A DNA stretch of 64,000 nucleotides from Escherichia coli (GCF_046105845.1 NZ_CP151004.1), one strand, 5' to 3'; shown: positions 34,527-56,423, counted from the first letter of the stretch. Made by a program: numbers and translations. The notes: generated from the letters alone by a model not told the origin.

Positions 34527-35894
34527 TTAATAAAATAGCGTGATTGTGGCAATCATATTCACCACGAAACCGACTGCCATGGGGATCGCTGTCCGCTTCA
34601 CTACCGCAAAAGGCGAAACGCCTGCAATTCCTGACGTAACGACCACCACCGCAGTAATCGGCGAAACAGCGCGCGCTAGCGTCGTGGCAAAATGCATCGG
34701 CATAATCATTACAACCGCTGGTACATGTAGTCCGGCTGCGATATTCGGAATAAGACTGGCAAATGACATAAACGGCGCATTGCCTGAGCCCATCACAATG
34801 GCACAAATGGCAATGACCAGCGCCATAATAATCATCACGCCAATACCGCCCAGGCCAGAATGCTCCGCACCCCTGATAACCGCATCGACAGTGCCAATCG
34901 TCGTTAAGCCTTTCGCAAATATTTCACCCGCGACCACCAGCGTTACCACGTTGGCAAACTGCGTACCCATGCCGTCAAAAAACGCCTGCACATCGTCCAT
35001 TGTTTCGCGCAAGTTATGCTTGCGGAAGAACTCAACAAACATCGTCACCGTCAAACTCAGTAACATCACCACCACCAGATGCAGTTCTGACTGCATCAGC
35101 CCGACGTGGGCAAGGAACAGCGAGCCGAGCATCAGGATTAACGGCATCACCGGTAAAATGGCGTAATAGAGCGGCGGGACATTATCGAGAGCTTTTTGCT
35201 CTGCCTGTTCGTGATTGATATTTTTATCTTTTTTGTCGAAAGCGCGTTGCACGAAAAAGTGGGAGATCGCCACCGAGATAATGACGCAAGAGGCGACCGG
35301 AAGCTGGTAGTGGAAGAAGTAAGTGGCAATTTTCATTCCTGCGACCTGGGCAGCAAAAATAGAGTTCGTTTCCAGAATCCCCCACTCAATGGACATGGTG
35401 GTTGCGATAACCGCCACCGCAGAGAGACGACTTACTCCCAGACTCACCAGCGTCGGAAATAAGGTGACCATCAGCAACATACCCAGACCGGAGGCGCTGG
35501 TAATAAACTGCGCCATGATTTGGCCGATGACGTAAGTTGCCGACAGAATAATATACGGCGAGCGAATGAGTTTTAACGGGCGGCTTAACAAGCTCACCAT
35601 CGCGCGACTTGCCCCTATGCGCTCCATATAGCGGGCATAACCGCCCACTGCCATAATCGACAGCCCCAATCCGGCAATGCGGTTGGACAGCATGCGCAGG
35701 ATTTCATTATAAATATCGACGATCAAGTAGCCGCTGCTTTTGGCGGGATCGAGCACACCACCGAACCCTAACCAGACACCGCACATCATCAGGAAGATAC
35801 CTGCGGCAGCCAGCACCACCTGAGGTTTGTAGTTTTTCAGGATCAAATAGCCCATCGTAATTAATACGATGACAGATATAATTATGCCGAACAT
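34527..35894 (-). CDS. dcuD: anaerobic C4-dicarboxylate transporter DcuD
   Basis: 455-aa polytopic membrane product ([17 protein letters not shown]...) starting at the internal ATG. Confidence 0.9.
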
Positions 35895-36273
35895 TGTTGA
35901 ACTCCGTGTCAAAAGAAAACGGTCAATCCCATAAACGGCAGATTGAAAACAATGATGTTATATTTTTTGCAAGGCTATTTATGGTGCGGATGTCGTGTTT
36001 TTAATTGTAGGTGAGGTGATTTTTCATTAAAAAATATGCGCTTATGATTATTTTGTAAGAACACATTCATAATATTCATAATGCTCGTGAATAGTCTTAT
36101 AAATAATTCAATCGGGATGTTTTTATCTGCGTTACATTAATTTTTCGCAATAGTTAATTATTCCGTTAATTATGGTAATGATGAGGCACAAAGAGAAAAC
36201 CCTGCCATTTTCCCCTACTTTCAATCCTGTGATAGGATGTCACTGATGATGTTAATCACACTGACCTTACAGA

Positions 36274-37065
36274 ATGGGCCTTATGAACGCATTTGATTCG
36301 CAAACCGAAGATTCTTCACCTGCAATTGGTCGCAACTTGCGTAGCCGCCCGCTGGCGCGTAAAAAACTCTCCGAAATGGTGGAAGAAGAGCTGGAACAGA
36401 TGATCCGCCGTCGTGAATTTGGCGAAGGTGAACAATTACCGTCTGAACGCGAACTGATGGCGTTCTTTAACGTCGGGCGTCCTTCGGTGCGCGAAGCGCT
36501 GGCAGCGTTAAAACGCAAAGGTCTGGTGCAGATAAACAACGGCGAACGCGCTCGCGTCTCACGTCCTTCTGCGGACACCATCATCGGCGAGCTTTCCGGC
36601 ATGGCGAAAGATTTCCTTTCTCATCCTGGCGGGATTGCCCATTTCGAACAATTACGTCTGTTCTTTGAATCCAGCCTGGTGCGCTATGCGGCTGAACACG
36701 CCACCGATGAACAAATCGATTTGCTGGCAAAAGCACTGGAAATCAACAGTCAGTCGCTGGATAACAACGCGGCATTCATTCGCTCAGACGTTGATTTCCA
36801 CCGCGTTCTGGCGGAGATCCCCGGTAACCCAATCTTCATGGCGATCCACGTTGCCCTGCTCGACTGGCTGATCGCCGCACGTCCAACCGTGGCTGATCAG
36901 GCTCTGCACGAGCATAACAACGTTAGCTATCAACAGCATATTGCGATCGTTGACGCGATCCGGCGTCATGATCCTGACGAAGCCGATCGTGCGTTGCAAT
37001 CGCATCTCAACAGCGTCTCTGCTACCTGGCACGCCTTCGGTCAGACCACCAACAAAAAGAAATAA
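36274..37065 (+). CDS. nanR: GntR/FadR-family repressor of sialic-acid genes
   Basis: 263-aa ORF recognised as NanR. Confidence 0.94.
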
Positions 37066-37128
37066 TGCCACTTTAGTGAAGCAGATCGCATTATAAGCTT
37101 TCTGTATGGGGTGTTGCTTAATTGATCT

Positions 37129-37151
37129 GGTATAACAGGTATAAAGGTATA
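37129..37151 (+). promoter_or_regulatory. NanR operator (three GGTATA repeats) in the nanA promoter
   Basis: GGTATA-aca-GGTATA-aa-GGTATA read directly, 36 bp upstream of the nanA ATG. Confidence 0.85.
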
Positions 37152-37186
37152 TCGTTTATCAGACAAGCATCACTTCAGAGGTATTT

Positions 37187-38080
37187 ATGGCAACGAATTT
37201 ACGTGGCGTAATGGCTGCACTCCTGACTCCTTTTGATCAACAACAAGCACTGGATAAAGCGAGTCTGCGTCGCCTGGTTCAGTTCAATATTCAGCAGGGC
37301 ATTGACGGTTTATACGTGGGTGGTTCGACCGGCGAAGCCTTTGTACAAAGCCTTTCCGAGCGTGAACAGGTACTGGAAATCGTCGCCGAAGAGGCGAAAG
37401 GTAAGATTAAACTCATCGCCCACGTCGGTTGTGTCAGCACCGCCGAAAGCCAACAACTTGCGGCATCGGCTAAACGTTATGGCTTCGATGCCGTCTCCGC
37501 CGTCACGCCGTTCTACTATCCTTTCAGCTTTGAAGAACACTGCGATCACTATCGGGCAATTATTGATTCGGCGGATGGTTTGCCGATGGTGGTGTACAAC
37601 ATTCCTGCCCTGAGCGGGGTAAAACTAACCCTGGATCAGATCAACACCCTGGTTACGCTGCCTGGTGTCGGCGCGCTGAAACAGACCTCTGGCGATCTCT
37701 ATCAGATGGAACAGATCCGTCGTGAACATCCTGATCTGGTGCTCTATAACGGTTACGACGAAATCTTCGCCTCTGGTCTTCTGGCGGGCGCTGATGGTGG
37801 TATCGGTAGTACCTACAACATCATGGGCTGGCGTTATCAGGGGATTGTGAAGGCGCTGAAAGAAGGCGATATCCAGACCGCGCAGAAGCTGCAAACCGAA
37901 TGTAATAAAGTCATTGATTTACTGATCAAAACGGGCGTATTCCGCGGCCTGAAAACGGTCCTGCATTATATGGATGTCGTTTCTGTGCCGCTGTGCCGCA
38001 AACCGTTTGGACCGGTAGATGAAAAATATCTGCCAGAACTGAAGGCGTTGGCCCAGCAGTTGATGCAAGAGCGCGGGTGA
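37187..38080 (+). CDS. nanA: N-acetylneuraminate lyase
   Basis: 297-aa ORF recognised as NanA (DHDPS-family aldolase). Confidence 0.95.
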
Positions 38081-38085
38081 GTTGT

Positions 38086-38119
38086 TTCCCCTCGCTCGCC
38101 CCTACCGGGTGAGGGGAAA
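38086..38119 (+). other. GC-rich hairpin in the nanA-nanT spacer, related to the tldD-aaeR hairpin
   Basis: TTCCCCTCGCTCGCCCCTACCGGGTGAGGGGAA; shares TCCCCTCGC...GGGTGAGGGGAA with the element at 20237-20270. Confidence 0.5.
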
Positions 38120-38188
38120 TAAACGCATCTGTACCCTACAATTTTCATACCAAAGCGTGTGGGCATCGCCCACCGCGGGAGACTCACA

Positions 38189-39679
38189 ATGAGTACTACA
38201 ACCCAGAATATCCCGTGGTATCGCCATCTCAATCGTGCACAATGGCGGGCATTTTCCGCTGCCTGGTTGGGATATCTGCTTGACGGTTTTGATTTCGTTT
38301 TAATCGCCCTGGTACTCACCGAAGTACAAGGTGAATTCGGGCTGACGACGGTGCAGGCGGCAAGTCTGATCTCCGCAGCCTTTATCTCTCGCTGGTTCGG
38401 CGGCCTGATGCTCGGCGCTATGGGTGACCGCTACGGGCGTCGTCTGGCAATGGTCACCAGCATCGTTCTCTTCTCGGCCGGGACGCTGGCCTGCGGCTTT
38501 GCGCCAGGCTACATCACCATGTTTATCGCTCGTCTGGTCATCGGCATGGGGATGGCGGGTGAATACGGTTCCAGCGCCACCTATGTCATTGAAAGCTGGC
38601 CAAAACATCTGCGTAATAAAGCCAGTGGTTTTCTGATTTCCGGCTTCTCTGTGGGGGCCGTCGTTGCCGCTCAGGTCTATAGCCTGGTGGTTCCGGTCTG
38701 GGGCTGGCGTGCGCTGTTCTTTATCGGCATTTTGCCAATCATCTTTGCTCTCTGGCTGCGTAAAAACATCCCGGAAGCGGAAGACTGGAAAGAGAAACAT
38801 GCTGGTAAAGCACCAGTACGCACGATGGTAGATATTCTCTACCGTGGTGAACATCGCATTGCCAATATCGTAATGACACTGGCGGCGGCTACTGCGCTGT
38901 GGTTTTGCTTCGCCGGTAACCTGCAAAATGCCGCGATCGTCGCTGTTCTTGGGCTGTTATGCGCCGCAATCTTTATCAGCTTTATGGTGCAAAGTACGGG
39001 CAAACGCTGGCCAACGGGCGTAATGCTGATGGTGGTCGTGTTGTTTGCTTTCCTCTACTCATGGCCGATTCAGGCGCTGCTGCCAACGTATCTGAAAACC
39101 GATCTGGCTTATAACCCGCATACTGTCGCCAATGTGCTGTTCTTTAGTGGCTTTGGCGCGGCGGTGGGATGCTGCGTAGGTGGCTTCCTCGGTGACTGGC
39201 TGGGAACCCGCAAAGCGTACGTTTGTAGCCTGCTGGCCTCGCAGCTGCTGATTATTCCGGTATTTGCGATTGGCGGCGCAAACGTCTGGGTGCTCGGTCT
39301 GTTACTGTTCTTCCAGCAAATGCTTGGACAAGGGATCGCCGGGATCTTACCGAAACTGATTGGCGGTTATTTCGATACCGACCAGCGTGCAGCGGGCCTG
39401 GGCTTTACCTACAACGTCGGCGCATTGGGCGGTGCACTGGCCCCAATCATCGGCGCGTTGATCGCTCAACGTCTGGATCTGGGTACTGCGCTGGCATCGC
39501 TCTCGTTCAGTCTGACATTTGTGGTGATCCTGCTGATTGGTCTGGATATGCCTTCCCGCGTTCAGCGTTGGTTGCGCCCGGAAGCATTGCGTACTCATGA
39601 CGCTATCGACGGCAAACCATTTAGCGGTGCCGTGCCATTTGGCCGCGCCAAAAACGATTTAGTCAAAACCAAAAGTTAA
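38189..39679 (+). CDS. nanT: sialic acid:H+ symporter
   Basis: 496-aa MFS transporter ([19 protein letters not shown]...) starting at the internal ATG. Confidence 0.94.
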
Positions 39680-39726
39680 TCCTGTTGCCCGGTCTCTGTA
39701 CCGGGCCTTTCGCTAAGGGAAGATGT

Positions 39727-40412
39727 ATGTCGTTACTTGCACAACTGGATCAAAAAATCGCTGCTAACGGTGGCCTGATTGTCTCCTGCCAGCCGGTTCC
39801 GGACAGCCCGCTCGATAAACCCGAAATCGTCGCCGCCATGGCATTAGCGGCAGAACAGGCGGGCGCGGTTGCCATTCGCATTGAAGGTGTGGCAAATCTG
39901 CAAGCCGCGCGTGCGGTGGTGAGCGTGCCAATTATCGGGATTGTGAAACGCGATCTGGAGGATTCTCCGGTACGCATCACGGCCTATATTGAAGATGTTG
40001 ATGCGCTGGCGCAGGCGGGCGCGGACATTATCGCCATTGACGGCACCGACCGCCCGCGTCCGGTGCCTGTTGAAACGTTGCTGGCACGTATTCACCATCA
40101 CGGTTTACTGGCGATGACCGACTGTTCCACGCCGGAAGACGGCCTGGCATGCCAAAAGCTGGGAGCCGAAATTATTGGCACTACGCTTTCTGGCTATACC
40201 ACGCCTGAAACGCCAGAAGAGCCGGATCTGGCGCTGGTGAAAACGTTGAGCGACGCCGGATGTCGAGTGATTGCCGAAGGGCGTTACAACACGCCTGCTC
40301 AGGCGGCGGATGCGATGCGCCACGGCGCGTGGGCGGTGACGGTCGGTTCTGCCATTACGCGTCTTGAACACATTTGTCAGTGGTACAACACAGCGATGAA
40401 AAAGGCGGTGCT

Positions 40413-40416
<4 letters not shown>
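39727..40416 (+). CDS. nanE: N-acetylmannosamine-6-phosphate 2-epimerase
   Basis: 229-aa product ([23 protein letters not shown]...) starting at the internal ATG. Confidence 0.93.
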
Positions 40417-41749
<1,333 letters not shown>

Positions 41750-41824
41750 ATTTATTAGATCAGGTGTGACCTGACCCATCTTTGGCACAGAGCCAAACCT
41801 GAACTGACGGACCGCTCTGTGCCA

Positions 41825-42130
41825 TTACCTGACGTTGTATTCTTTTATGTTAACACCCTTGATACTGTATATACCTGTCCGCTTAATTCGCTTGCCCTTT
41901 TTATTCGTAATAGTTGCTGTAAGTGTACTGCAGCGAATGGAATGACGTTCATCAATCACCAGCCGAATTGCTTCTGAAGCATCTTCCACCTCTAGAAGGT
42001 CGTGAGTCTTATTTAAGCCGAATGGAACAAGGTGGAAGGCCGTTTTTCCAGATGATTTTCTGGTTATTTTTACTGGATACAACACATCACCACTTTTATG
42101 GATTAATTCAAGCTGTTCAATGTAAATCAT
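41825..42130 (-). other. AT-rich degenerate ORF downstream of the yhcG-like fragment
   Basis: 101-aa ORF in the same frame as 42218-42574 but separated from it by two in-frame stops; markedly AT-rich; no motif recognised. Confidence 0.25.
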
Positions 42131-42217
42131 GGCAACTTTCCTTCGTTTATCTGCATGAATATATAAACCGAAAATAGGAGATGCAATACAAAAGCTGTGG
42201 AAATATCAAATAGCCTC

Positions 42218-42574
42218 TCAATTTGGCAGACAGCGTCTGCCAAATCTTTGCCGATGGGAATTCTGCAGAATTTCAACATGTTGATAAAAAAGGTAAAAAA
42301 GCTTCATTTGGCGTAAGTTTTTTGCAGAGACCCCACGTTTATACCGTCGACTTAAATCCTGCGATAACCGATCAATCAGCTGTGCAGCATAAGCCGCTCT
42401 TGCCTCGCCGCCTTGTTCAAATTCGACAATTCGTCGGCCAATTTCCCAGTATGTGGCGGTCATTAACGCGTTAACACTACGTACCGTTTCCGTCCGGGCG
42501 CTATCGACCAGGTGAATAATACCGTCGTGGATTTGCTGGTAGCCTGTTGAGGTTCTCTCTGAGAGCGATTCCAT
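42218..42574 (-). pseudogene. yhcG-like (DUF1016-family) N-terminal fragment, probably a gene remnant
   Basis: 118-aa ORF whose sequence (...VNALMTATYWEIGRRIVEFEQGGEARAAYAAQLIDRLSQDLSRRY...) resembles the N-terminal domain of YhcG/DUF1016 proteins; it ends in stops with no PD-(D/E)xK domain. Confidence 0.4.
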
Positions 42575-42727
42575 TATCTGTCCCTTTATATGGCGCTGCG
42601 TTGAATAATGGAATCAGCTATACGCCGGGCATCTACCGGTAACAATCCAGATGAGCGTATTACATTGGTTTTCTTCACATTATGCGAGGCACCTTCCAGC
42701 GAGGTGTCACGTTGTGGTGAAGATAAA

Positions 42728-42760
42728 TCAAAAAAGGCCGGAGCGGGCGTATCCGGCCAG
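42728..42760 (-). terminator. rho-independent terminator of the five-gene operon
   Basis: GGCCGG...CCGGCC hairpin 7 nt after the vWA gene stop, followed on the minus strand by a T6 run. Confidence 0.8.
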
Positions 42761-42765
42761 AATTT

Positions 42766-43935
42766 TCAGGCGGTTTCTCTTGCTGTCACTACGCCATTTT
42801 GCGCAGCCCACAGATTCACATCTTCCTTACGAATGGCGGCGGCCATCATGCCGGGGAATAAATCTGGGGTACAGGCAAAGGAGGGAATACCCATGGCGGC
42901 GAGTTTTCCTGCCAGTGACCGGTCGTAAAACGGCGCACCTTCATCGCTTAAGGCCAGCAGGGTAACCACCTGTACGCCGGACTGAATCAACTCACTGGCG
43001 CGTTGCAACAGATTGCGTTCCACCCCGCCTTCGTAGAGGTCGGAAATCAGCACCAGAATGGTATTGCGCGGATCGCGAATCAAAGACTGGCAGTAGCCCA
43101 CCGCGCGGTTGATGTCGGTGCCGCCACCCAGCTGTACGCCAAACAGCAGCTCTACCGGATCGTCGAGCTTCTCTGTCATATCAACGACTGCGGTGTCGAA
43201 AACCACCAGATGCGTTTTTACCGCCGGGAGCGATGCCATTACTGCGCCAAAAATACTGGAATAGACCACCGAGGAGGCCATCGACCCACTCTGGTCGATA
43301 CATAAAATGATCTCCTTTTGCGTGCGTTGAGACTTGCGCCCGTAGCCGATCAGCGTTTCAGGAACAATACTTTTATACTCTTCCTGCCAGTGGCGCAGGT
43401 TGGCGCGAATGGTGCGCTGCCAGTCAATTTCCGCGTGGCGCGGGCGACGATTACGTACCGCACGATTAAGAGCGCCGCTTACCGCGCTACGCATTGGCTC
43501 TTCAAGCTGTTTCATCAATTGCTCGACAACTTTACGCACCACAAGCCTGGCGGTTTCTTTGGTTTTGGCCGGAATTACGCCATTCAGCGACATCAGCGTG
43601 GAGACCAGATGAACATCAGGCTGGACGTTTGCCAGCATCTCTGGCTCCAGCAGCATACTGTGCAAATTAAGACGTTCAAAGGCGTCTTTTTGCATCACCT
43701 GAACCACAGAAGAAGGGAAATACTGGCGAATATCACCCAGCCAGCGAGCGACTTTGGGTGACGATCCACCCGTGCCGCCGCGTAATCCATGTTTACCGTC
43801 TGGCTGATAGAGCGCCGCCAGCGCGGCATCAATCGCGGACTCTCTGGCATCCAGCGCCACGTTACAGGCATTGTCGGCATCTTCTCCAAGGATCAGACGC
43901 CAGCGGCGCAGCCGTTCCATTTCGTTACTCGACAT
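42766..43935 (-). CDS. von Willebrand factor A (vWA) domain protein with an intact MIDAS motif; gene 5 of the operon
   Basis: 389-aa ORF with ILCIDQSGSM (DxSxS), a downstream GGGTD and LISDLYEGG; AAGGG Shine-Dalgarno; start overlaps the upstream gene by 11 nt. Confidence 0.8.
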   Translation of the reverse strand: MSSNEMERLRRWRLILGEDADNACNVALDARESAIDAALAALYQPDGKHGLRGGTGGSSPKVARWLGDIRQYFPSSVVQVMQKDAFERLNLHSMLLEPEMLANVQPDVHLVSTLMSLNGVIPAKTKETARLVVRKVVEQLMKQLEEPMRSAVSGALNRAVRNRRPRHAEIDWQRTIRANLRHWQEEYKSIVPETLIGYGRKSQRTQKEIILCIDQSGSMASSVVYSSIFGAVMASLPAVKTHLVVFDTAVVDMTEKLDDPVELLFGVQLGGGTDINRAVGYCQSLIRDPRNTILVLISDLYEGGVERNLLQRASELIQSGVQVVTLLALSDEGAPFYDRSLAGKLAAMGIPSFACTPDLFPGMMAAAIRKEDVNLWAAQNGVVTARETA

Positions 43936-46174
43936 GATTTTCCCTTTCGTGTGGTGGCAAAGCCAGAATGCGGCGCAGTAGCGGCAGCATTAACGCGGCA
44001 CGCTGTTCATCCCATATACCGCAGGTCTCTTCTTGCTGCGCGACACGCTCGCCCTGCGCGGCGCGTTCGCCTAACTGGCGGCGTTCCGGGCTGGAAAAAC
44101 GGCCGAATGTCCGCCGCAGCATCGGCAGGATCCGGGTGAAGTGATCGTCGTTCAGACCGCTTAGCCAGGCATCGATCAACTGCCATAATTCGCTATTGTG
44201 CAGTAGCACCATCGCGCTGTCGTTGAGGAAACCTTCCGCCCATGCGGCACTTTCCGCCGGGGGATTGGCTGGCGATAGCGCCAGGTTCATCAGCGTGGTG
44301 ATCCGTTCTGTCGTTAACGTTTGCAGATCAAACAGCAGGCGCGTCGCCGTTCCGCGAAGCAGCGCGTGTGCGGTACTGCCCTCTGCCAGCACCATCAACG
44401 CCTGCAACCAGCCCGCCAACAGATCTTCGTTATCCAGCAACCGCAGCGCGGCGTGGGCGTCGATAACTTTTTCTCTCATACTGGCGGCGCTGTCGTCGTT
44501 GAGCGCCGAACAGGCTCCGGGTAGGGCGATGGCGGCGCGCGGGGCGAGGCTCATCAGTACCTGCATTACCATACCAGAGTCGGTCTGGCGCACGTTGCCG
44601 TAGCGGACAATCGCCACCAGTGGTGCCAGGGATTCCAGCAACTGTTCGATATTGCCCTGAGTGGCAGCCAGTGATTCCAGTGTATTGGCGATGGGGGCAA
44701 TCGCGGTCTGTAAATCGGCCAGTAGCACCTGTTGGATAAGCTTTGCCAGTTCCGGCAGCGTGCTGGCGTATTGCGCCCTCACAATGGCATAGCGGGAGCT
44801 GGCCTGCTCAATGCTGTTACCCCAACGGCTGGCGGTAATGATGTTCATTGCCAGTGCCGGTTCCCAGCGCAGCGACCAGACTTCGTGGAACGTCCCTTTG
44901 CTGTTATTTCCTTGTCCAGCCAGACGGCCCCAGGGAATGTCGAGTAAGGTCAGGCGATGCAGTAAATGGCTACGCGCCAGATCGCCGGGGTTGCGCAGAT
45001 CAAGATCCAGCACTTTTTCGCTGGCTTCTGCCTTCAGGCGCAGCGTTTTTTGCTGTTGCGTAATGTCGCGTTGGAGCGGCACGACGGGCGTATCATCCGG
45101 TACGCTTCCCAGCGCGTAGCCGACAATTAACTTCTGGCGAATCATCTGCATTGGCGCGCTTTCGCCCATACACACTACGGTTTGCAGCGCTTCGCAAAGT
45201 TCGTCAAGCCCCGGCTGCGGGTGATGGCGCATAATCGCCAGCGTCTGCGCCAGCCGCGCCGCTTCGATAATGTGGGCGCTGGAACAGTCGAGATCGGCTT
45301 CGCGAAACAGCCTTGCCGCGCGTGACAGCCAGCCGATATCGCGGTGAGAAGCGCCCTGATAACGCCACAGATGATCGTACCATTCCGGTGACACCACCCC
45401 TGCGCCATAACCGCTGGCGCGGCTTAACGCCTCGTAGCTCCAGGGCGTCCAGGCTGCCGCGACCTTGCACTTCGGCAAATTTTTCAGCAGTTCGTTATCA
45501 TTCTTTGCGGGCGGCAGGTTTTCCAGCGCCGGAACGTGCCACGCACCGCAGACTACCGCGATGCGCGAGAAGCCCTCTTTTTTCGCCTGACGTAGCGTCT
45601 TGCGCATATACGCTTCACGCAGTTGATCTCTGGCTGAGTTTCGGGCTTCGGGAGTTGCCTGGCGTAGGGCAATCATCGCCTCGCGAATCGCCTCGAACAG
45701 AGACAAATCATCTTCGCGTTCCTCTACTCTGTGGCTCCACCAGCTTTCCCCATCGGTGTAACCGGCGGCGCGGCCCAGCCAGTCCAGCGGATCGCCGTCG
45801 GGACTGGCTTCAACGGCATCATCGTCATCGCTTTCTTTTTCGTCATCAAGCGCGAACTGATGACTGATGGGCAAGTCCATAAAGCGCACGGCGATATTTT
45901 GCTCAAAACCATAGCGCAGCGCCTGCCATTCCGGGGAGAACGCCGCAAAGGGGTAAAACGCGGCGTGATGTGAGTCGTCCGGGGCATAAATCAGTAGCGC
46001 GACCGGCGGTTGCATCTGTTCATGCTGCATGAAAGGCAGAATGGATTCGCCGTCGGGCGGCCCTTCCACCAGCAGGCAGTCGGGCTGTAGCGTCTCCAGC
46101 GCCTTTCGCAGGCTGCGCGCGCAGCCAGGGCCATGGTGACGGATGCCAAACAAATGAACGGTTTGTTCAGTCAT
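43925..46174 (-). CDS. large uncharacterised protein, gene 4 of the operon (from memory resembles DUF5682-type, YehM-like proteins; unverified)
   Basis: 749-aa ORF with E. coli-like codon usage, an AAGG Shine-Dalgarno 9 nt upstream and an internal acidic stretch (DDEKESDDDDAVEASPDGD); no catalytic motif recognised. Confidence 0.7.
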   Translation of the reverse strand: MTEQTVHLFGIRHHGPGCARSLRKALETLQPDCLLVEGPPDGESILPFMQHEQMQPPVALLIYAPDDSHHAAFYPFAAFSPEWQALRYGFEQNIAVRFMDLPISHQFALDDEKESDDDDAVEASPDGDPLDWLGRAAGYTDGESWWSHRVEEREDDLSLFEAIREAMIALRQATPEARNSARDQLREAYMRKTLRQAKKEGFSRIAVVCGAWHVPALENLPPAKNDNELLKNLPKCKVAAAWTPWSYEALSRASGYGAGVVSPEWYDHLWRYQGASHRDIGWLSRAARLFREADLDCSSAHIIEAARLAQTLAIMRHHPQPGLDELCEALQTVVCMGESAPMQMIRQKLIVGYALGSVPDDTPVVPLQRDITQQQKTLRLKAEASEKVLDLDLRNPGDLARSHLLHRLTLLDIPWGRLAGQGNNSKGTFHEVWSLRWEPALAMNIITASRWGNSIEQASSRYAIVRAQYASTLPELAKLIQQVLLADLQTAIAPIANTLESLAATQGNIEQLLESLAPLVAIVRYGNVRQTDSGMVMQVLMSLAPRAAIALPGACSALNDDSAASMREKVIDAHAALRLLDNEDLLAGWLQALMVLAEGSTAHALLRGTATRLLFDLQTLTTERITTLMNLALSPANPPAESAAWAEGFLNDSAMVLLHNSELWQLIDAWLSGLNDDHFTRILPMLRRTFGRFSSPERRQLGERAAQGERVAQQEETCGIWDEQRAALMLPLLRRILALPPHERENHVE

Positions 46175-46191
46175 AGTGGTTGCCTTGCTGA

Positions 46192-47286
46192 TTACACAAT
46201 TTCGCGGCAGGCGCGATAGAGATCGTTCCAGTCGCTGCGCTCTTTGACGATGGTTTCCAGATATTCACGCCATACCACGTCGTCCTGCACGGGGTCTTTT
46301 ACCACCGCGCCGACCAGGCTTGCGGCAATATCCCGCGGATGCAGTACGCCGTCGCCAAAATGGCCTGCCAGCGCCATACCGTTGTTGATAACGGAGATCG
46401 CCTCCGCGGTGCTGAGAGTGCTGGTTGGCGACTTAATTTTTGTTTTGCCGTCAACCGTCAGGCCGTTTCGTAGTTCGCGGAATATCTGCACGACTCGCTG
46501 AATCTCCTTTAATGCTGGTGGTTCGGCGGGCAGCGCAAGCGCCTGGCCGAGTTCAGCGACGCGGCGAGTGACAATGTTAATCTCTTCTTCTTCGCTGGCG
46601 GGTACGGGCAAAATAACTGTGTTGAAACGACGTTTAAGCGCGGAAGAAAGTTCGTTAACACCTTTATCCCGGTTGTTGGCGGTGGCGATAACGTTAAAGC
46701 CGCGCGTCGCCTGGACCTCTTCATTCAGTTCGGGGATAGGCAGCGTTTTTTCCGACAGGATCGTGATCAGCGTGTCCTGAACATCAGCAGGAATACGCGT
46801 CAGCTCTTCTACGCGTGCAATCTGCCCGCGCGCCATCGCCCGCATCAACGGACTTTCTACCAGCGCCGAACGTGACGGACCTTTAGAGAGCAACTCCGCG
46901 TAGTTCCAGCCATAACGCATTTGTTCTTCACCGGTGCCTGCGGTGCCCTGAATAATTAACGTTGAGTCGCCGCTGATGGCGGCCGCCAGATGTTCAGAGA
47001 CCCAGGATTTCGCAGTGCCGGGTACGCCATACAACAGCAGTGCGCGATCGGTTGCCAGAGTGGCAACGGCAGTTTCGATAATCCGCCGGTTGCCGATATA
47101 TTTCGGCGTGACCTCAAAGCCATTTTCCAGCTGCCCGCCCAACAGATAGGTGGCGACGGACCATGGAGAAATGGCCCAGTTTTCCGGGCGCGGATGAGTA
47201 TCGTTTTTTTGCAGCTCATCCAGTTCTTCAGCAAATTGTTGTTCGGCATGTCGGCGTAAAACGGCGGCAGTAGCGGTGGAAGTCAT
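46192..47286 (-). CDS. MoxR-family AAA+ ATPase, gene 3 of the operon
   Basis: 364-aa product from the ATG at 47286 (ATGA overlap with the upstream stop; GGAG Shine-Dalgarno). Walker A GVPGTAKS, Walker B region IARVEEL, sensor-1 NVIATANN, arginine motif ALKRRF. Confidence 0.85.
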   Translation of the reverse strand: MTSTATAAVLRRHAEQQFAEELDELQKNDTHPRPENWAISPWSVATYLLGGQLENGFEVTPKYIGNRRIIETAVATLATDRALLLYGVPGTAKSWVSEHLAAAISGDSTLIIQGTAGTGEEQMRYGWNYAELLSKGPSRSALVESPLMRAMARGQIARVEELTRIPADVQDTLITILSEKTLPIPELNEEVQATRGFNVIATANNRDKGVNELSSALKRRFNTVILPVPASEEEEINIVTRRVAELGQALALPAEPPALKEIQRVVQIFRELRNGLTVDGKTKIKSPTSTLSTAEAISVINNGMALAGHFGDGVLHPRDIAASLVGAVVKDPVQDDVVWREYLETIVKERSDWNDLYRACREIV

Positions 47287-48887
47287 AAAGTAGTTTCTCC
47301 GACAAAAAACGAATGAAGTTGAATTCGGTGCGCCAGCGTGGCGCTCAGGGCAGTAAAGGCTGCCTCGCAATAAGGCGTTTGTTGTGCGTCGTGCGGCCAC
47401 TTTTCAATGACATCATTGAGGACTTCGGGGGCCAGCAGGCAGGCGAAATCACTCATCACATGGCGCAGGGCGTAGTCAAAGCGCGCGGAATCATGTTTCA
47501 CCCAACGGTGCAGCTCCGTGACCATTTGCTGGCTCAGGCGCAGGCTAAAGAGCGACGCATCCGGCGGTAACAGGCTGATGTAGCGATGTAAATGTTCGCC
47601 GCCCACCACTGAGAACAATGACCGTAACATCGGCTCGTGTTCTTCTACAGGCAGACATTGCAAAAGCTCAAAGGCGTTAATCTTCACGCCTGCAGTATGA
47701 TGAATGCTCATTCCGACGGGCAGCATGGCGAGAAACGCCTGCGCCCACTGCGGATTTTTTTCGCGCAGTACGGCGTGATACCAGGCGCGCAGTAGCGCCT
47801 CCTGCCAGTCGGTTTTCCCGGCCCAGCGCAGCAGTTCAACGGGGGTAGCCTGCAGTTGCGTTTGCCACCAGTCGAGCGGAACCGCTGCAACTATCTGATA
47901 CAGCCACCATGCGCGCTGGCCCAACTTTTCGCCTTTGGGCTTAGTTTCTTCCAGCGCATCGGCCTTCCACTCTGGTAAGAACGCCTCCGGGGCATCAAGG
48001 GCGACGCGCAGCGTTTTTTCTCCGCGCAGTAAACCTTTTCGCCGCGCAAGCCAGCTCTCAGGATCGGGGGAGGAATTGAGCAGCGGCGCTAACCTGGACT
48101 TCATGCGCCAGACCCAGGCGCTTTCTGGCAGACAAAGCAGTAATCGTGCCGCAGTTTGCCGCACCTCTTTGCTGCGATCGGATAATGTCTGTTCCAGAAA
48201 GGCTTCGTCGTATTGGGAGATCTCCACTTCCAGCACAGCCAGCAGCTGTGCGCGTTCGCGGGCATCCAGCGAACTCATCTCCTGCGCCAGCCGATCGCGA
48301 CCCTGTTCCGGGGCGCGAATGCGCATTTGCGTCAGATATTGCAGACGCTGTTCGGACGTGCCGTGCAGCCACATTTCTTCATCCAGCGGAGCGTCAACGG
48401 AGGCAAGAAAATAGCGCCAGTCGGCGTTAATCTGCGCCAGCCAGCGCCCGCGAGCGCCGAGGACATTGGGCAGAATGCCGCGTATTGATGGATTTTGTAC
48501 GCCGTAATTCAGCAGTGCCGGTAACAGCAGGGGCGGAGAAAGAAGCTGACGCTGGACCAGGTGATCAAGCGCTGACCACAGTAAACGCGGCGGCCCTTCT
48601 GCCAGCAACAGATGCAGCAGTCCCGCAAAAGCCGGGTTGTTTATTGGCTCGGCATTTTCTTTATCGATTTCCGGCAGCGGTGCGGGGTCAATCGCCTGCG
48701 GCTCCCAGCCAGCCAGATGGCAGAGTGCCAGAACGCCCGCCGAGCGCAGTAGCTGTTGCTCTGCAGATGTGTTATTCGCCAGTTCAGACAGTAGCAGCCC
48801 AATCTCACTTTGCGACGCTGACGGTGTAAACGCTTTTTTGTCTGTGCCGAGTAGCGCTGTGCGGGTTAAATTTTTCCATTCGTTCAT
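47283..48887 (-). CDS. uncharacterised Leu/Trp-rich protein, gene 2 of the operon (from memory resembles DUF5691-type proteins; unverified)
   Basis: 534-aa product from the ATG at 48887 (ATGA overlap with the SWIM gene stop; GGAGG Shine-Dalgarno 8 nt upstream); the track ORF begins at an upstream TTG. Confidence 0.7.
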   Translation of the reverse strand: MNEWKNLTRTALLGTDKKAFTPSASQSEIGLLLSELANNTSAEQQLLRSAGVLALCHLAGWEPQAIDPAPLPEIDKENAEPINNPAFAGLLHLLLAEGPPRLLWSALDHLVQRQLLSPPLLLPALLNYGVQNPSIRGILPNVLGARGRWLAQINADWRYFLASVDAPLDEEMWLHGTSEQRLQYLTQMRIRAPEQGRDRLAQEMSSLDARERAQLLAVLEVEISQYDEAFLEQTLSDRSKEVRQTAARLLLCLPESAWVWRMKSRLAPLLNSSPDPESWLARRKGLLRGEKTLRVALDAPEAFLPEWKADALEETKPKGEKLGQRAWWLYQIVAAVPLDWWQTQLQATPVELLRWAGKTDWQEALLRAWYHAVLREKNPQWAQAFLAMLPVGMSIHHTAGVKINAFELLQCLPVEEHEPMLRSLFSVVGGEHLHRYISLLPPDASLFSLRLSQQMVTELHRWVKHDSARFDYALRHVMSDFACLLAPEVLNDVIEKWPHDAQQTPYCEAAFTALSATLAHRIQLHSFFVGETTL

Positions 48888-50206
48888 TGTGCGCCTCCGG
48901 TTGCCCAAATCACGCTACCGGCAAGCCAGGCGCTACAGGGCGTCAGTTGCTGACCGTCCCATTCCCCCATTAGCATAAACGGCGCGCCGCCGCTGGCAGC
49001 CAGTAACCGCCAACCCTCGTCCGATGACAGGAGCGTCGGTAAGTGCTGGCCCTGTGTCGAGACGAATCGCCAGCCGCTCTCGTGCGGGTAAATCAATATT
49101 TCGCTTACTCGCAGCGGCAGAGGCCATTGCCAGGGATTCGCGCTAAGCCGCTGCGCCATGTCATGCAGCGCGTCCGGGAGGGGTAATTCTGCAAGCGGGA
49201 ATCTTTCACCGCGGGTAAACGGCTCCACAACCCGCGCCCGTAGCGGTGATGCGCCAGGGAAAAAGGCAAGCGCGCCCTGGCAGACTTGCCCGGTGATAAA
49301 GTGCTGGGGAAAGTTTTTACCACCGTGTGAATAGTCCAGCAGTAGCGCGGTGCGGTGGCTCTTTTCTCCGTACAACCAGACCCGGCGTCGCCACAGATTA
49401 TTCTCTTCTTGCGCGCTTTGACCTAAGATCTGCCAGTTATCGAGGCAGGTTAATCCGTCAGTGACGTCGTGTTTTTCCGGGGGTATTCCCAATGCCGCAT
49501 GGAGATCGCTAAGTTGTGCCGGGGATAACATTTGTTGCTGGCGCCAGGCGTCAATAATCAGCTGTAGCTGCCCCAGTTCTTTGCACAGGCTCGATGGCCA
49601 TACCTCGGCGGTAGTAAAAAGAGTGGTCAGATTGTTCAGGCGAGCGGCAATTCCCGGTAGTTGGGCGTCGACCATGCGGGCGGCGATCCCGGCAAAAGGC
49701 AACTGTTGTGCAGAGATCTGCGCCAGACCGTGGCGGATCAGGTCGTGCATCCACTGTTCGAGGAAATCCAGCCCCGCCGTCATTTTTTGGTTACGTGCCG
49801 CTTCCCGTTTGGCGGCAGCCTGCGGGTCGGCAGCTTTTGCCTCAGCCTGCTCTTTCTTCTCTTCTTTGTGAACCGCCCGCTGCTGGCGCGAGGTTAGCCA
49901 CTCGCTTACCCATTCCGGCGGCTCGCCAGCGGTGAAACTTGCGGTGTGTTGCACCTGGAGCAAAAGCAACGCAAGGCTATGTTTACAGGGGAATTTACGG
50001 CTGGGGCAGGAACATTTACAGGCCAGATCCTGTCTGTCGATTCGTACCTGATAAGGGCGGGAGCCGCTACCTTTACACTCTCCCCAGAAGGCGGTCTCGC
50101 TATATCCCAGCGTCGGCCATTTTGCGGGGGCAACCAGGCCACGAGCCGCTTTAACCGAGGCGTCATCGGGCGCCAGGGCTTGCACTGATTCAACGGTCAG
50201 TTCCAT
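48884..50206 (-). CDS. SWIM zinc-finger domain protein, gene 1 of the operon
   Basis: 440-aa ORF with a CxCxnCxH motif (CKCSCPSRKFPCKH) near residue 60, then a Lys/Glu/Ala-rich charged linker and a C-terminal domain of unknown function. Confidence 0.8.
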   Translation of the reverse strand: MELTVESVQALAPDDASVKAARGLVAPAKWPTLGYSETAFWGECKGSGSRPYQVRIDRQDLACKCSCPSRKFPCKHSLALLLLQVQHTASFTAGEPPEWVSEWLTSRQQRAVHKEEKKEQAEAKAADPQAAAKREAARNQKMTAGLDFLEQWMHDLIRHGLAQISAQQLPFAGIAARMVDAQLPGIAARLNNLTTLFTTAEVWPSSLCKELGQLQLIIDAWRQQQMLSPAQLSDLHAALGIPPEKHDVTDGLTCLDNWQILGQSAQEENNLWRRRVWLYGEKSHRTALLLDYSHGGKNFPQHFITGQVCQGALAFFPGASPLRARVVEPFTRGERFPLAELPLPDALHDMAQRLSANPWQWPLPLRVSEILIYPHESGWRFVSTQGQHLPTLLSSDEGWRLLAASGGAPFMLMGEWDGQQLTPCSAWLAGSVIWATGGAQ

Positions 50207-50398
50207 TACAATTCTCTATTGGCGTGGGGAAATCGATGGGGTCAAGGAGGCGTTAAGCAAAGCAGGAGGAGACTGTTTTCCGTAACAGCGTATTGCGCGT
50301 CCATCGCAAATTTGTAGTGAGTATAGCGGGCGGTAAATTCAGGAAACAATGGCGGATAGCGGAAAGTGTAGTTTTTCGGAAAAAGATAACTTTATCCC

Positions 50399-50431
50399 GT
50401 GTAACCCGTTTTAAGCGGGCTACACGGGAGG
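50399..50431 (-). terminator. strong hairpin immediately downstream of gltD (probable terminator)
   Basis: 13-bp stem CCCGTGTAGCCCG / CGGGTTACACGGG with one G-U pair, starting 8 nt after the gltD stop; the U-tract is displaced about 12 nt. Confidence 0.5.
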
Positions 50432-50438
50432 CTGCAAT

Positions 50439-51869
<1,431 letters not shown>

Positions 51870-54800
51870 TTACTGCGCCTGCACGCGCAACTCTGCTGCG
51901 CTACGACTACGGTGACCCAGCAGTGCTTTTACATCACTGGACTTCGGTTTAACCAGCGCGAATTTCGTGGCGAAGGTTGACCAGTTCGCCAGAATCTCTT
52001 CACCGCGCTGGGAACCGGTATGCTGCACATGCTCGGTGATAAGACCGCGCAGATGCTCTTCATGGATCGCCAGATCGTCAACGCTTAAGACCTCGACCAG
52101 TTCCGGGTTAACGCGTTTGCGGAAATCGCCGCTTTCATCGAGAACGTAAGCGAAGCCTCCGGTCATACCCGCGCCGAAATTCACGCCGGTTTTACCCAGA
52201 ATACAGACAATACCGCCCGTCATATATTCACAGCCATTATCGCCAATGCCTTCTACCACGGTGATAGCACCGGAGTTCCGCACGCCGAAACGTTCACCCG
52301 CGCGGCCTGCGGCATACAGACGACCACCGGTCGCGCCATACAGGCAGGTGTTGCCGATAATACTTGCTTCATGGCTGCGGAAGGCTGAGCCAACCGGAGG
52401 GCGAATGGCGATTAAGCCGCCCGCCATGCCTTTACCGACATAGTCGTTGGCATCACCGGTCAGGTACAGTTCCACGCCGCCCGCGTTCCACACACCGAAG
52501 CTCTGGCCTGCGGTGCCGTTGAAGTACGCTTTGATCGGATCGGCTGCCAGACCCTGATCGCCGTGCGTCTGGGCGATATAGCCTGAAAGCGACGCGCCGA
52601 CAGAACGGTCGGTGTTGCGAATATCGAACCAGAAGGTTTTGCTCTGACGCTCATCGACAAACGGTTTTGCCTGTTGCAGCAACTGTGCGTTCAGCAGGCC
52701 GTTATCAAACGGCGGGTTGTTTTCGGTACAGTAGAGCGCCTTACCTGGATGCGGCTCAGCGGTCTCCAGCAGTTTCGACAGCGCCAGTTTCTGCTGTTTG
52801 GCGGTGAAACCGTCCAGCTCTTTAAGCAGGTCGGTGCGACCAATCAGATCCACCAGCCGCGTTACCCCCAGCTGTGCCATCAGCTCGCGGGTTTCACGTG
52901 CGATAAACTCAAAGTAATTGGTCACCTTGAACGGCAGGCCGTGATAGTGATTCTTACGCAGTTTGTCATCCTGAGTTGCAACACCCGTCGCGCAGTTGTT
53001 CAGATGGCAAATACGCAGATATTTACAACCGAGCGCCACCATCGGGCCAGTGCCGAAGCCGAAGCTTTCTGCGCCGAGAATCGCCGCTTTGATGATATCA
53101 ACGCCGGTTTTCAGGCCGCCATCAACCTGCAAACGGATCTTATGACGCAGACCATTGGCAACCAGCGCCTGTTGGGTTTCAACAAGCCCCAGCTCCCACG
53201 GACAGCCTGCGTATTTCACCGATGAAAGCGGACTTGCGCCGGTGCCGCCGTCATAGCCTGCGATGGTGATTAAATCGGCATAAGCTTTTGCCACGCCAGT
53301 CGCGATGGTGCCTACGCCTGGTTCGGAAACCAGCTTCACGGAGATCATCGCTTTTGGATTGACCTGCTTGAGGTCGAATATCAGCTGCGCTAAATCCTCG
53401 ATAGAGTAGATATCGTGGTGCGGCGGCGGGGAGATCAGCGTCACTCCGGGCACCGAATAGCGCAGTTTGGCAATGTAAGGAGTGACTTTATCACCCGGCA
53501 ATTGACCGCCTTCGCCCGGCTTCGCGCCCTGGGCGACTTTAATCTGAATGACGTCGGCATTGACCAGGTACGCCGGAGTAACACCGAAGCGACCGGACGC
53601 CACCTGCTTGATGCGCGACACTTTGTTAGTGCCATAGCGCGCCGGGTCTTCACCGCCTTCGCCGGAGTTTGAGTTACCGCCGATGCTGTTCATCGCTTCC
53701 GCCAGCGCCTCGTGGGCTTCCGGGCTTAACGCGCCGATAGACATCGCGGCGGTATCGAAGCGTTTAAACAGTTCGCTTGCCGGTTCAACATCAGCAATGT
53801 TGACCGCGTTTTCACCCGGCGTAATTGCCAGCAGATCGCGCAGCGTGGTTGCCGGACGCTCATTAACCAGCTTCGCGTATTCCTGATAGTCGCTATACTC
53901 GCCGCTTTGTACCGCCTGCTGCAGTGTGCGCACCACGTCCGGGTTGTAGGCGTGGTATTCGCCGCCGTGCACGTATTTCAGCAGGCCGCCCTGGCTGATG
54001 GGCTTGCGCGCCAGCCAGGCACGTTTCGACAGATTCAGCAGATCCTGCTGGAAGTCTTCAAAGCTCGCCCCGCCAATGCGGCTAACCGCGCCCTGGAAGC
54101 ACAGGCCTACGACATCATCGTGTAGACCGACCGCTTCAAACAGTTTCGAGCAGCGGTAAGAGGCGATGGTGGAGATGCCCATTTTGGACATGATTTTGTA
54201 CAAGCCTTTGTTGATGCCGTTACGGTAGTTGAGCATCACGGTACGATAATCTTTGGCAATCGCGTGGGTGTCTACCAGGCGGCCCAGCGTTTCATAGGCA
54301 AGGTACGGATAAATAGCCGTCGCACCGAAGCCCAGCAACACGGCGAAGTGGTGCGGATCACGGGCGCTGGCGGTTTCGACGATGATGTTGGCATCGCAAC
54401 GCAGGCTTTGCTCGACCAGACGGGTCTGGATCGCGCCAACCGCCATCGGGGCTGGAACCGGCAGGCGATCTTTAGCGATATTCCTGTCGGAGAGCACCAG
54501 CAACACGGTGCCGCTACGTACCATTTTTTCAGCTTTGTCGCACAGCTCTTTGACCGTCGCTTCGAGCGTGGTTTTGGTGACGTCAAAGGTGATATCCAGT
54601 GTATCTGCGCGGTAGTGCTCCTCTTTCATCGTCGTGAGCTGTTTGAAATCGGAGTAGAGCAGAATCGGCGATTTAAAACTTAAACGGTGCGCCTGGCCCT
54701 CTGCTTCACAGAAGACGTTCATTTCACGCCCGATGCTGGTGGCGAGCGACATAACATGCGCTTCACGCAGTGGGTCGATTGGCGGGTTGGTGACCTGGGC

Positions 54801-56423
54801 AAATTGCTGGCGGAAGTAATCGTAAATAATGCGCGGCTGACTGGAGAGCACGGCGAATGGGGTGTCGTCGCCCATCGAACCGACCGCTTCCTGACCGTTT
54901 TCGCCCAGTACGCGAATTACGGAGTCCAGCTCTTCCGCGCTGTAGTTAAACTGTTTCTGGTAGCTGGCAAGTGTGTCGTCGTCCAGTTCGCGGCTACCTA
55001 CTTCTTCATCGGGCAGATCTTCAAACGGTACCAGTCGGCGGACGTTTTTCTCCATCCACTCTTTATATGGATGGCGGCTTTTCAGATCGTCATCGGTTTC
55101 TGCCGAGTGCAGAATACGCCCACTGCGGGTGTCGATAACCATCAGTTCGCCTGGCCCGACGCGGCCTTTTTCGACCACTTCGTCAGGCTGGTAATCCCAG
55201 ATACCGACTTCAGAGGCGCAGGTGATGAGCTTATCTTTGGTGATGACGTAGCGCGCCGGACGCAGACCGTTACGGTCGAGGTTACAGGCAGCGAAGCGAC
55301 CATCGGACATCACGATGCCCGCCGGACCATCCCACGGCTCCATATGCATGGAGTTAAAGTCAAAGAAGGCACGCAGTTCCGGGTCCATATCCGGGTTGTT
55401 CTGCCAGGCGGGTGGTACTAACAGACGCATGGCGCGGATGATATCCATCCCGCCTGCCAGCAGCAGTTCCAGCATGTTATCCATCGAACTGGAGTCAGAA
55501 CCGGTTTCGTTGACGAACGGCGCGGCGTCGTGCAGGTCAGGGATCAGCGGCGTCTGGAATTTATAGGTACGTGCGCGCGCCCATTGGCGGTTACCGGTGA
55601 TGGTGTTGATTTCACCGTTATGCGCCAGGTAGCGGAACGGCTGCGCCAGCGGCCAGCGCGGTACGGTGTTAGTGGAAAAGCGCTGGTGAAACAGGCAGAT
55701 GGCCGATTCCAGACGCAGGTCCGCGAGGTCCAGGTAGAAGCGCGGCAGATCCGCCGGCATACACAGACCTTTATAGATGTTCACCAGATTCGACAGGCTA
55801 CAGACGTAGAAGTCTTTGTCGGCTTCGAGACGCTTTTCAATGCGGCGGCGGGCGATAAACAGACGGCGCTCCATATCGCGCGGACGCCAGCCTGCCGGGG
55901 CGTTCACAAAAATTTGCTCAATGCGTGGCAGAGAGGAGAGGGCGATTTCACCCAGCACGCCTTCGTTAGTGGGGACATCACGCCAGCCCACAATCGACAA
56001 CGTTTCGCGTTGCAGCTCTTCTTCAACGATGTGGCGTGCGGCAGCAGCGAGTTCAGGATCTTTATTCAGGAATAGCATCCCGACGGCGTAGTTTTTTGCT
56101 AAACGCCAGCCGCGCTCCTGCGCAACGATGCGAAAAAAGCGATCCGGTTTTTGTAACAGCAAGCCGCAACCGTCACCGGTTTTACCATCGGCGAGAATCG
56201 CGCCACGGTGCTGCATGCGGGCCAGTGCGTGTATTGCAGTACGCACTACCTTGTGGCTAGGTTCGCCTTCTATGTGGGCGATCAGGCCGAAACCACAGTT
56301 ATCCCTCTCAAGGGATTTATCGTACAACATATCGTGAACCTCCCCCAGGCTCTGCGGGAACCCCACTTCCGAACCGCTGCGCACGGGCACAGAAAGAGCG
56401 TGGCGACGGGGGTTGCGTGTCAT
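51870..56423 (-). CDS. gltB: glutamate synthase large subunit
   Basis: About 1517-aa product from the ATG at 56423 ([14 protein letters not shown]...), including the propeptide before the Cys of [11 protein letters not shown]. Confidence 0.96.

Follow-up and report, generated by a model that had tools for sequence, protein, structure and literature searches.

In the RavA-ViaA, CoxD-CoxE, CbbQ-CbbO and NorQ-NorD systems the gene for a MoxR-class AAA+ ATPase adjoins a gene for a VWA protein with a metal ion-dependent adhesion site (MIDAS), and the characterised MoxR-VWA pairs are chaperone-like maturation factors (PMC3893208). YehL represents one of the seven recognised MoxR subfamilies (PMC3893208), and yehL and yehM are derepressed in hns/stpA mutants (PMC3686432). 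The vWA-MoxR-VMAP systems likewise combine a MoxR ATPase with a vWA protein, add further specificity or effector proteins, and are patchily distributed (PMC10910872). Here we describe an operon of five genes related to yehLMPQ in a 64,000-nucleotide stretch of an Escherichia coli chromosome (NZ_CP151004.1, assembly GCF_046105845.1), referred to below as the window, in whose coordinates all positions are given unless another locus is named. The operon lies on the minus strand in the interval between nanQ (yhcH) and gltD, together with a fragment of yhcG and a short AT-rich segment that contains an open reading frame (ORF) of 101 amino acids.

The five genes are tightly packed, with overlaps of 4 nt (two) and 11 nt (one), are followed by a terminator-like hairpin of their own (Table 1), and have the Pfam order SWIM, DUF5691, AAA_5 (MoxR-like), DUF5682 and VWA_CoxE. 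They share with yehLMPQ of strain K-12 a collinear core of AAA_5 ATPase, DUF5682 and VWA_CoxE genes, YehM being a DUF5682 protein, and in both clusters there is a SWIM protein, which in K-12 is YehQ. Identities to the K-12 proteins are 41% for the AAA protein and YehL (350 aa, E 1e-78), 27% for the DUF5682 protein and YehM, and 37% for the VWA protein and YehP. The two clusters differ in that the SWIM gene is last in yehLMPQ but first here, and apart from the zinc finger its product does not align significantly with YehQ (best E 0.91); moreover, K-12 lacks a DUF5691 gene, has DUF4132 and WGR genes upstream, and carries its cluster at another chromosomal location. The DUF5691 protein was considered as a relative of YehI/DUF4132 and rejected, there being no resemblance. 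To judge by these alignments the operon is to be regarded as a distant paralogue, or variant, of yehLMPQ and not as its orthologue, and the AAA protein is assigned to the YehL subfamily of MoxR ATPases by its closest named relative and by the VWA gene two genes downstream. The four other MoxR-VWA pairs have no counterparts of the SWIM, DUF5691 and DUF5682 proteins, and no client enzyme gene is found near the operon. It also differs from the vWA-MoxR-VMAP systems, as the bpMoxR score is 21.4 bits against a Pfam cutoff of 27 and Pfam finds no VMAP or beta-propeller domain.

We think it likely that the E. coli chromosome has a multi-allelic replacement slot between the gltD stop codon and nanQ, filled in this strain by an old and rare cassette, a decayed yhcG and a 470-bp fragment of mobile-element-border DNA. 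The slot can hold a fimbrial operon, nothing, or the five-gene cassette, and the states of yhcG vary independently of these. The cassette itself is a widespread, strongly constrained and uncharacterised relative of yehLMPQ, and is of more interest than the compositional finding with which it is associated.

The variable slot between gltD and nanQ

The interval is bounded on one side by nanR, nanA, nanT, nanE, nanK and nanQ, all on the plus strand (36274-41749), and on the other by gltD and gltB (Table 1). Comparison with empty-site strains delimits a replaceable cassette of 7,739 bp, which stands in place of 58 bp in KFu022 and has one junction at the gltD stop codon and the other in the spacer upstream of yhcG. 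Operon DNA is present in 33 of 5,426 complete E. coli genomes, always on the chromosome and at 97.5-98.2% identity. The junction between the SWIM gene and gltD is identical in all 33, and a cassette-specific 232-bp spacer is common only to the operon-bearing strains. The corresponding interval of K-12 measures 7,096 bp and holds yhcF, yhcE::IS5, yhcD, yhcA and gltF. This chaperone-usher cassette (guanine-plus-cytosine [GC] content 0.43-0.45) occupies the same slot in the same orientation, is similar in size (7.1 kb vs 7.7 kb), and shares the right junction at the gltD stop, the left junctions lying within 12 bp of each other, but its gene content is unrelated, it is AT-rich, and it is much commoner (1,136 of the 5,426 genomes). 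The slot is empty in many strains; in STEC435 and others an intact yhcG directly adjoins gltD. It is presence/absence and synteny, not composition, that give the answer on the accessory status of the operon.

No repeats are seen in the alignments at junctions 42699/42700 and 50438/50439, and no integrase or transposase is found among the five Pfam assignments; nor does a tRNA gene accompany the operon, the position of the junctions making a tRNA search unnecessary. Because integrase, tRNA gene and junction repeat are all absent, homologous recombination in the conserved flanks would be the most likely route of cassette exchange.

Three distinct left flanks accompany the operon in E. coli. N96 and three other strains have an intact yhcG, most operon-bearing strains have a flank of the type seen in SMS-3-5, and in the window the flank consists of the truncated yhcG and the AT-rich segment. 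The junction between yhcG and the VWA gene is like that of the window in only 4 of the 33, and the AT-rich patch and the operon occur together in none of the 5,426 complete genomes. In SMS-3-5 (4092-4995 of its locus) and O158:H23 the left flank contains hypothetical ORFs of 190 and 48 aa, along with a scrap of 123 bp from the interior of yhcG that abuts the VWA stop codon.

The AT-rich segment immediately follows the nanQ stop codon, takes the place of the 3'-terminal 722 bp of yhcG, and is found in 716-725 of the 5,426 complete genomes (~13%). A preliminary description of this DNA had called positions 41800-42200 conspicuously AT-rich and considered this to fit horizontal acquisition; the first is borne out and the second is supported: GC is 0.399 (z -2.7), falling locally to 0.355, and the patch belongs to a replacement segment with homologues at integrase and prophage borders. 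Windows of 401 bp with a GC content as low make up 2.3% of the total. The patch is one of six at GC <=0.40 in the window and not the lowest, patches 25000-25728 and 35681-36447 reaching ~0.32-0.33, and it is set apart from the others in being an ORF and not a regulatory spacer.

The 101-aa ORF is the most deviant in the window (GC z -6.2; z -4.7 for GC at third codon positions [GC3]), and its product has no match in Pfam, NCBIfam or PHROGs. Homologues with 82-89% identity are present in Enterobacter and Yersinia. That of Yersinia canariae adjoins a phage-type integrase downstream of icd and that of Enterobacter cloacae lies at the edge of a lambdoid prophage, positions which support mobile-element border DNA as the probable origin of the AT-rich patch. 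Arrival of this fragment would have removed the 3' end of yhcG. Two other identities for the ORF were rejected: an insertion sequence (IS) transposase, since 'transposase' and 'IS600 orf-like' appear only in source annotations and no transposase profile matches, and a diverged YhcG C-terminus, since there is no resemblance to YhcG. An inverted-repeat search around the patch found no IS-like ends and only a palindrome at the yhcG breakpoint. This palindrome is a perfect one of 11+11 nt, ATTTGGCAGAC agc GTCTGCCAAAT (42221-42245), and is located exactly where homology to K-12 yhcG begins.

The yhcG remnant is not only truncated but has a 44-bp internal deletion relative to K-12, and in KFu022 it is annotated as a partial pseudogene. 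Among PADLOC models, many of those for the phage-defence candidate PDC-S02 match the fragment (best E 1.9e-30). This component of the variable slot may be a decayed candidate defence gene.

Base composition of the operon and of its relatives

The operon (42766-50206) has a GC content of 0.577, compared with 0.526 for the whole window and 0.531 for the ±10 kb flanks, and is the GC-richest 7.4-kb stretch in the window; 0.4% of sliding windows equal it, all of them overlapping it, and the best non-overlapping one reaches 0.553. The individual values for the five genes are 0.554, 0.595, 0.557, 0.574 and 0.588. Against the other 40 genes of the window (mean 0.531, standard deviation 0.023, range 0.482-0.581) these correspond to z +1.0 to +2.8, with two genes (0.595 and 0.588) just above all the others and three within range. 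The direct neighbours have GC contents of 0.555 (gltD), 0.571 (gltB), 0.581 (nanE), 0.575 (nanK) and 0.552 (nanT), and pooled they give a GC of 0.562 and a GC3 of 0.623, compared with a GC3 of 0.630 for the operon. Karlin codon bias, calculated for the five genes against the rest of the genes in the window, is ordinary (z -0.55 to +0.16), and the step in GC is abrupt on the yhcG side only, where it drops from 0.58 to 0.36-0.42.

The preliminary description had the operon clearly more GC-rich than the flanking core genes. This holds in so far as no other 7.4 kb of the window is richer, and the GC-rich 20-mer that it quoted is present at 45247-45266, but gltB, nanE and nanK come near to equalling the operon and its GC3 and codon bias are ordinary. 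In the comparison that the same description had proposed as a check, codon usage and GC3 fall within the range of the flanking core genes and GC lies marginally above it. The compositional profile expected of an 'alien' island is therefore not seen against this 64-kb background: GC is just high in two of the five genes, GC3 equals that of the flanks, and codon bias is host-like.

The GC excess of the operon amounts to 3.9 points at first codon positions, 3.6 at second and 5.3 at third. Positions 1 and 2 together hold ~59% of it, so that it reflects amino-acid composition; the operon proteins are enriched in Ala, Arg, Pro, Leu and Trp and depleted in Ile, Lys, Phe, Tyr, Val and Gly.

A one-genome-per-species scan by peptide pattern, by which diverged copies can be missed, recovered the cassette at 33 loci, ~28 of them with the same five-gene order. 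Its hosts include Gammaproteobacteria, Betaproteobacteria, Desulfovibrionaceae, Verrucomicrobia, Bacteroidales and Chloroflexi, as well as Thermoanaerobaculia, Obscuribacterales, Planctomycetia, Armatimonadota and Actinobacteria, and the gene order is conserved across at least ten bacterial phyla. Flanking DNA was sufficient for comparison at 25 loci, and at 23 of them the cassette has a higher GC content than its flanks, by a mean of 4.7 points (Wilcoxon p ~1e-6), the difference in the window being 4.6; an excess is likewise present in Klebsiella huaxiensis, two enteric contigs and Bilophila. Cassette GC nonetheless follows the host, ranging from 0.455 to 0.782 as host flank GC ranges from 0.42 to 0.74. 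Given that the excess recurs in 23 of 25 hosts and that ~59% of it resides at codon positions 1 and 2, the offset is largely a family-intrinsic trait, made up of protein composition and a somewhat raised GC3, and not a donor signature. An offset of 4-5 points can thus be intrinsic to a family across hosts with flank GC of 42-74%, and caution is needed, as it is unusable as an indication of a donor.

Age and movement of the cassette

In K. huaxiensis the cassette occupies the same slot, in the order gltB, gltD, cassette, nanQ, nanK, nanE, nanT, nanA, nanR, sspB, sspA, rpsI, rplM. Synonymous divergence (dS) between the window and K. huaxiensis is 1.08-1.29 for the operon genes, compared with 0.89 for gltD, 1.23 for nanE, 1.45 for nanT and 1.29 for sspB, and the ratio of nonsynonymous to synonymous divergence (dN/dS) of the operon genes is 0.03-0.27, showing purifying selection on all five. 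The nearest operon copy outside Escherichia has 76-77% protein identity. Since dS is as high as in the flanking core genes, the cassette is an old resident and not a recent import, and the interpretation that we favour is of an old accessory cassette, retained and transferred through homologous replacement within a variable slot.

Several points weigh against this interpretation or limit it. Escherichia-Klebsiella dS is near saturation (proportion of synonymous differences ~0.6), so that these values mean 'not recent' and give no date, and the background for GC and codon usage is the 40 genes of a 64-kb window, not a whole genome. Other enteric contigs carry the cassette between ygjQ and ygjR, with DUF5682 proteins 65-66% identical, and copies in Alistipes putredinis, Bacteroides sp. 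43_108 and Bacteroides gallinarum share identical cassette coordinates (~6082-13344) and identities, which suggests that the cassette was recently transferred between genera in Bacteroidales. The ygjQ-ygjR copies and the apparently near-identical Bacteroidales copies indicate horizontal movement of the cassette on some time scale. Among E. coli strains, dS between the window and N96 is lower for the operon (0.015-0.127) than for the flanks (0.10-0.23), a pattern in keeping with later recombinational spread and not with simple co-inheritance. A plasmid search found distant copies only (<=46% identity), mostly on large replicons or chromids, and hence does not point to a plasmid as the vector of the E. 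coli copy.

Alternative accounts of the origin of the locus have to be weighed against an old cassette in a variable slot. Ordinary gene-to-gene GC variation in a core chromosomal region would be compatible with the three operon genes that lie in range, the similar GC of gltB, nanE and nanK, the ordinary codon bias, and the presence of six AT-rich patches of such depth in the window; it is refuted by the presence/absence data, as each segment is missing from the majority of E. coli genomes and its replacement junctions are exact, and we give it almost no credence. Recent import from a GC-richer donor, with the raised GC as an unameliorated donor signature, is what the preliminary description envisaged. 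It would explain why the operon is the GC-richest 7.4 kb of the window with two genes beyond all 40 others, why it is rare in E. coli, and why the family is scattered across phyla and found on some large plasmids and chromids. However, the codon bias is host-like and GC3 equals that of gltBD and nan, the same ~4.7-point offset is found in hosts over the entire range of flank GC, the closest copy outside Escherichia shares the slot, is no more similar than the 76-77% given above and has saturated dS, the E. coli copies already differ by 1.8-2.5%, and the junctions have no integrase, tRNA gene or repeat; such an import is very unlikely. What survives of the proposal that the two segments were acquired horizontally from different sources is that both are strain-variable and that the AT-rich patch resembles mobile-element DNA, whereas a GC-rich source for the operon is unsupported in view of its host-like codons, the family-wide offset and the dS to K. 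huaxiensis.

At the other extreme, the cassette could be strictly ancestral, already in place in the gltD-nanQ interval of the ancestor common to Escherichia and Klebsiella, inherited vertically with no horizontal step and lost in nearly all lineages. The shared slot in K. huaxiensis with dS like that of the flanking genes, the purifying selection on all five genes, and the three left-flank haplotypes in E. coli, which suggest long residence, all agree with this. Very many independent losses would be needed, though, given that 99.4% of complete E. coli genomes are without the cassette, that among Klebsiella only K. huaxiensis turned up in the searches run, and that no Escherichia or Klebsiella species representative was recovered in the peptide-pattern scan, in which diverged copies can be missed. 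The lower dS of the operon relative to its flanks within E. coli and the different slot in other enterics also speak against strict vertical descent, which we regard as unlikely.

Some further observations concern these loci. The nan and gltBD flanks (36274-41749 and 50439-56438) are unusually diverged between the window and N96, with 94.5-97.8% nucleotide identity. In the Bacteroidales copies the GC content of the cassette is 0.562 and that of the flanks 0.455-0.470. One enteric contig has a second, different MoxR trio (AAA_3, DUF2201 and LRV repeats; 1097-4993) directly upstream of ygjQ-cassette-ygjR.

The five proteins and their predicted role

RefSeq names the products of the operon after their domains, and NCBIfam gives no useful names for them. 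Conservation across phyla is greatest in the AAA (62-83% identity) and VWA (52-80%) proteins and declines through DUF5682 (38-58%) and SWIM (30-49%) to DUF5691 (26-38%), which is the fastest-evolving subunit (dN/dS 0.27 vs Klebsiella and 0.45 within E. coli). The DUF5691 gene starts at an ATG at 48887 according to the RefSeq annotation of N96, overlapping the stop of gene 1 by 4 nt, and the long ORF begins at a TTG at 48908. The translated MoxR ATPase has the Walker A motif GVPGTAKS, and the VWA protein (dN/dS 0.05) has a MIDAS-like DQSGS motif. The Walker B region of the ATPase reads VEEL, with Glu-Glu instead of Asp-Glu, as in YehL. The ATPase is extremely conserved, with 94% amino-acid identity to K. 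huaxiensis (GltD 93%) and a dN/dS of 0.03, and is 78-83% identical to copies in Pseudomonas, Verrucomicrobia and Chromatiales.

At E <= 1e-3 the DUF5682 family comprises 4,434 sequences, each representing a cluster at 50% identity. The N-terminal domain of the operon's member is predicted to have the alpha/beta fold of the TIKI/TraB/ChaN/Ere superfamily, with a parallel sheet core. An alignment of 34 homologues, YehM among them, shows no variation at G10, R12, H13, E37, C209, G210 and H213. The His-Glu-His set of H13, E37 and H213, of a kind typical of hydrolases in this superfamily, is reminiscent of the catalytic 2His/2Glu residues of TIKI proteins (PMC6254334). The domain differs from the TIKI/TraB/PrgY/ChaN/erythromycin-esterase superfamily in that the similarity is undetected by Pfam or by PDB sequence search, and in being fused to a helical-repeat region of ~450 residues and encoded in a MoxR-VWA operon. 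PDB sequence searches with the DUF5682, DUF5691 and SWIM proteins gave no match. The predicted TIKI/TraB-like domain provides a concrete and testable catalytic hypothesis.

We envisage the cassette as a machine of the YehLMPQ type, in which ATP would power the remodelling or activation of a DUF5682-scaffolded complex by a MoxR hexamer together with a VWA adaptor that bears the MIDAS. Hydrolase activity would lie in the TIKI-like site of DUF5682, and the faster-evolving SWIM and DUF5691 proteins would be the subunits that recognise the target. Such an arrangement would constitute an undescribed class of ATP-gated machine, in which a MoxR/VWA switch controls a TIKI-like protease or esterase directed at a conserved cellular or invading target; we put this forward tentatively, as a possibility that is more doubtful than probable. 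Literature searches on DUF5682/DUF5691, yehLMPQ and the combination of MoxR, SWIM and vWA found no paper on the cassette and no experimental work on the YehL subfamily.

A role specifically in anti-phage defence or another conflict, with MoxR-VWA as a nucleoside triphosphate-dependent switch, a TIKI-like effector, and the slot as a small hotspot of defence type, would be in keeping with the patchy, rare and strain-variable occurrence of the cassette, with the PDC-S02 match of the neighbouring yhcG, with the existence of vWA-MoxR ternary conflict systems (PMC10910872), with the fast evolution of SWIM and DUF5691, and with the H-NS silencing of the K-12 paralogue (PMC3686432). PADLOC-DB 2.0, however, has no match for four of the five operon proteins and only a sub-threshold one for the AAA protein (IetA, E 0.0015), and the bpMoxR score is below the Pfam cutoff. 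The neighbours of the cassette in Bilophila, Klebsiella and the enteric loci are housekeeping genes and not defence islands, and the AAA and VWA proteins are unusually conserved, unlike typical arms-race genes. We consider a conflict system improbable.

Table 1. Coordinates of the gltD-nanQ interval and adjoining genes.
Feature	Position	Strand	Basis or remarks
AT-rich replacement segment, 470 bp, GC 0.402	41751..42220		No homology to K-12 or N96; nanQ stop codon to yhcG breakpoint
101-aa ORF in AT-rich patch	41825..42130	minus	GC 0.389, GC3 0.373
yhcG remnant, N-terminal DUF1016_N fragment	42218..42574	minus	Pfam DUF1016_N E 1.9e-25; blastn vs K-12 yhcG
Whole replaceable cassette, 7,739 bp vs empty-site strains	42700..50438		Homology to KFu022 and SMN152SH1 stops at 42699 and resumes at 50439 (gltD stop codon)
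Terminator-like hairpin (GGCCGGA, 9-nt loop, TCCGGCC, T6)	42730..42758	minus	Read from sequence; directly 3' of VWA stop, inside cassette
Gene 5, VWA (CoxE-type) protein, 389 aa	42766..43935	minus	Pfam VWA_CoxE E 2.7e-52
Gene 4, DUF5682 protein, 749 aa	43925..46174	minus	Predicted N-terminal TIKI/TraB/ChaN-like domain and alpha-helical repeat C-terminus
Gene 3, MoxR-type AAA+ ATPase (AAA_5), 364 aa	46192..47286	minus	Pfam AAA_5 E 1.2e-38, residues 121-259 of long ORF
Gene 2, DUF5691 protein, 534 aa	47283..48887	minus	Pfam DUF5691 E 4e-121
Gene 1, SWIM zinc-finger protein, 440 aa	48884..50206	minus	
13-bp-stem hairpin	50396..50428	minus	Read from sequence; directly after gltD stop, in 232-bp spacer
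gltD	50439-51857	minus	
gltB	51870-56438	minus	

A scan for consensus promoters and terminators was uninformative, with counts equal to those in shuffled sequences, and it missed the hairpin at 42730-42758, whose loop is longer than 8 nt. Other AT-rich patches of the window are at 25000-26534, 35681-36447, 56429-57082 and 629-1135, with 401-bp GC down to 0.32-0.37, and are deeper than that at 41800-42200; the one at 35681-36447 covers the space from nanR to an ORF (34527-35912) that K-12 synteny identifies as dcuC, and the one at 56429-57082 the space from gltB to the next gene.

The DUF5682 protein matches phrog_30700. A phage origin of the cassette, raised by this match, was set aside, the sole 'phage' record being an UNVERIFIED 14-kb faecal contig. 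This record, MT835988.1, is a 'Bacteriophage sp.' entry from human faeces in which a triad of AAA, DUF5682 and VWA genes (289-4888) encodes proteins with 56, 29 and 44% identity to those of the operon. Verrucomicrobial copies of the cassette have extra gaps of ~0.7-0.9 kb, lying between the DUF5691 and AAA genes at two loci (L017, L020) and between the AAA and DUF5682 genes at three (L008, L035, L038), and these may hold an additional gene.

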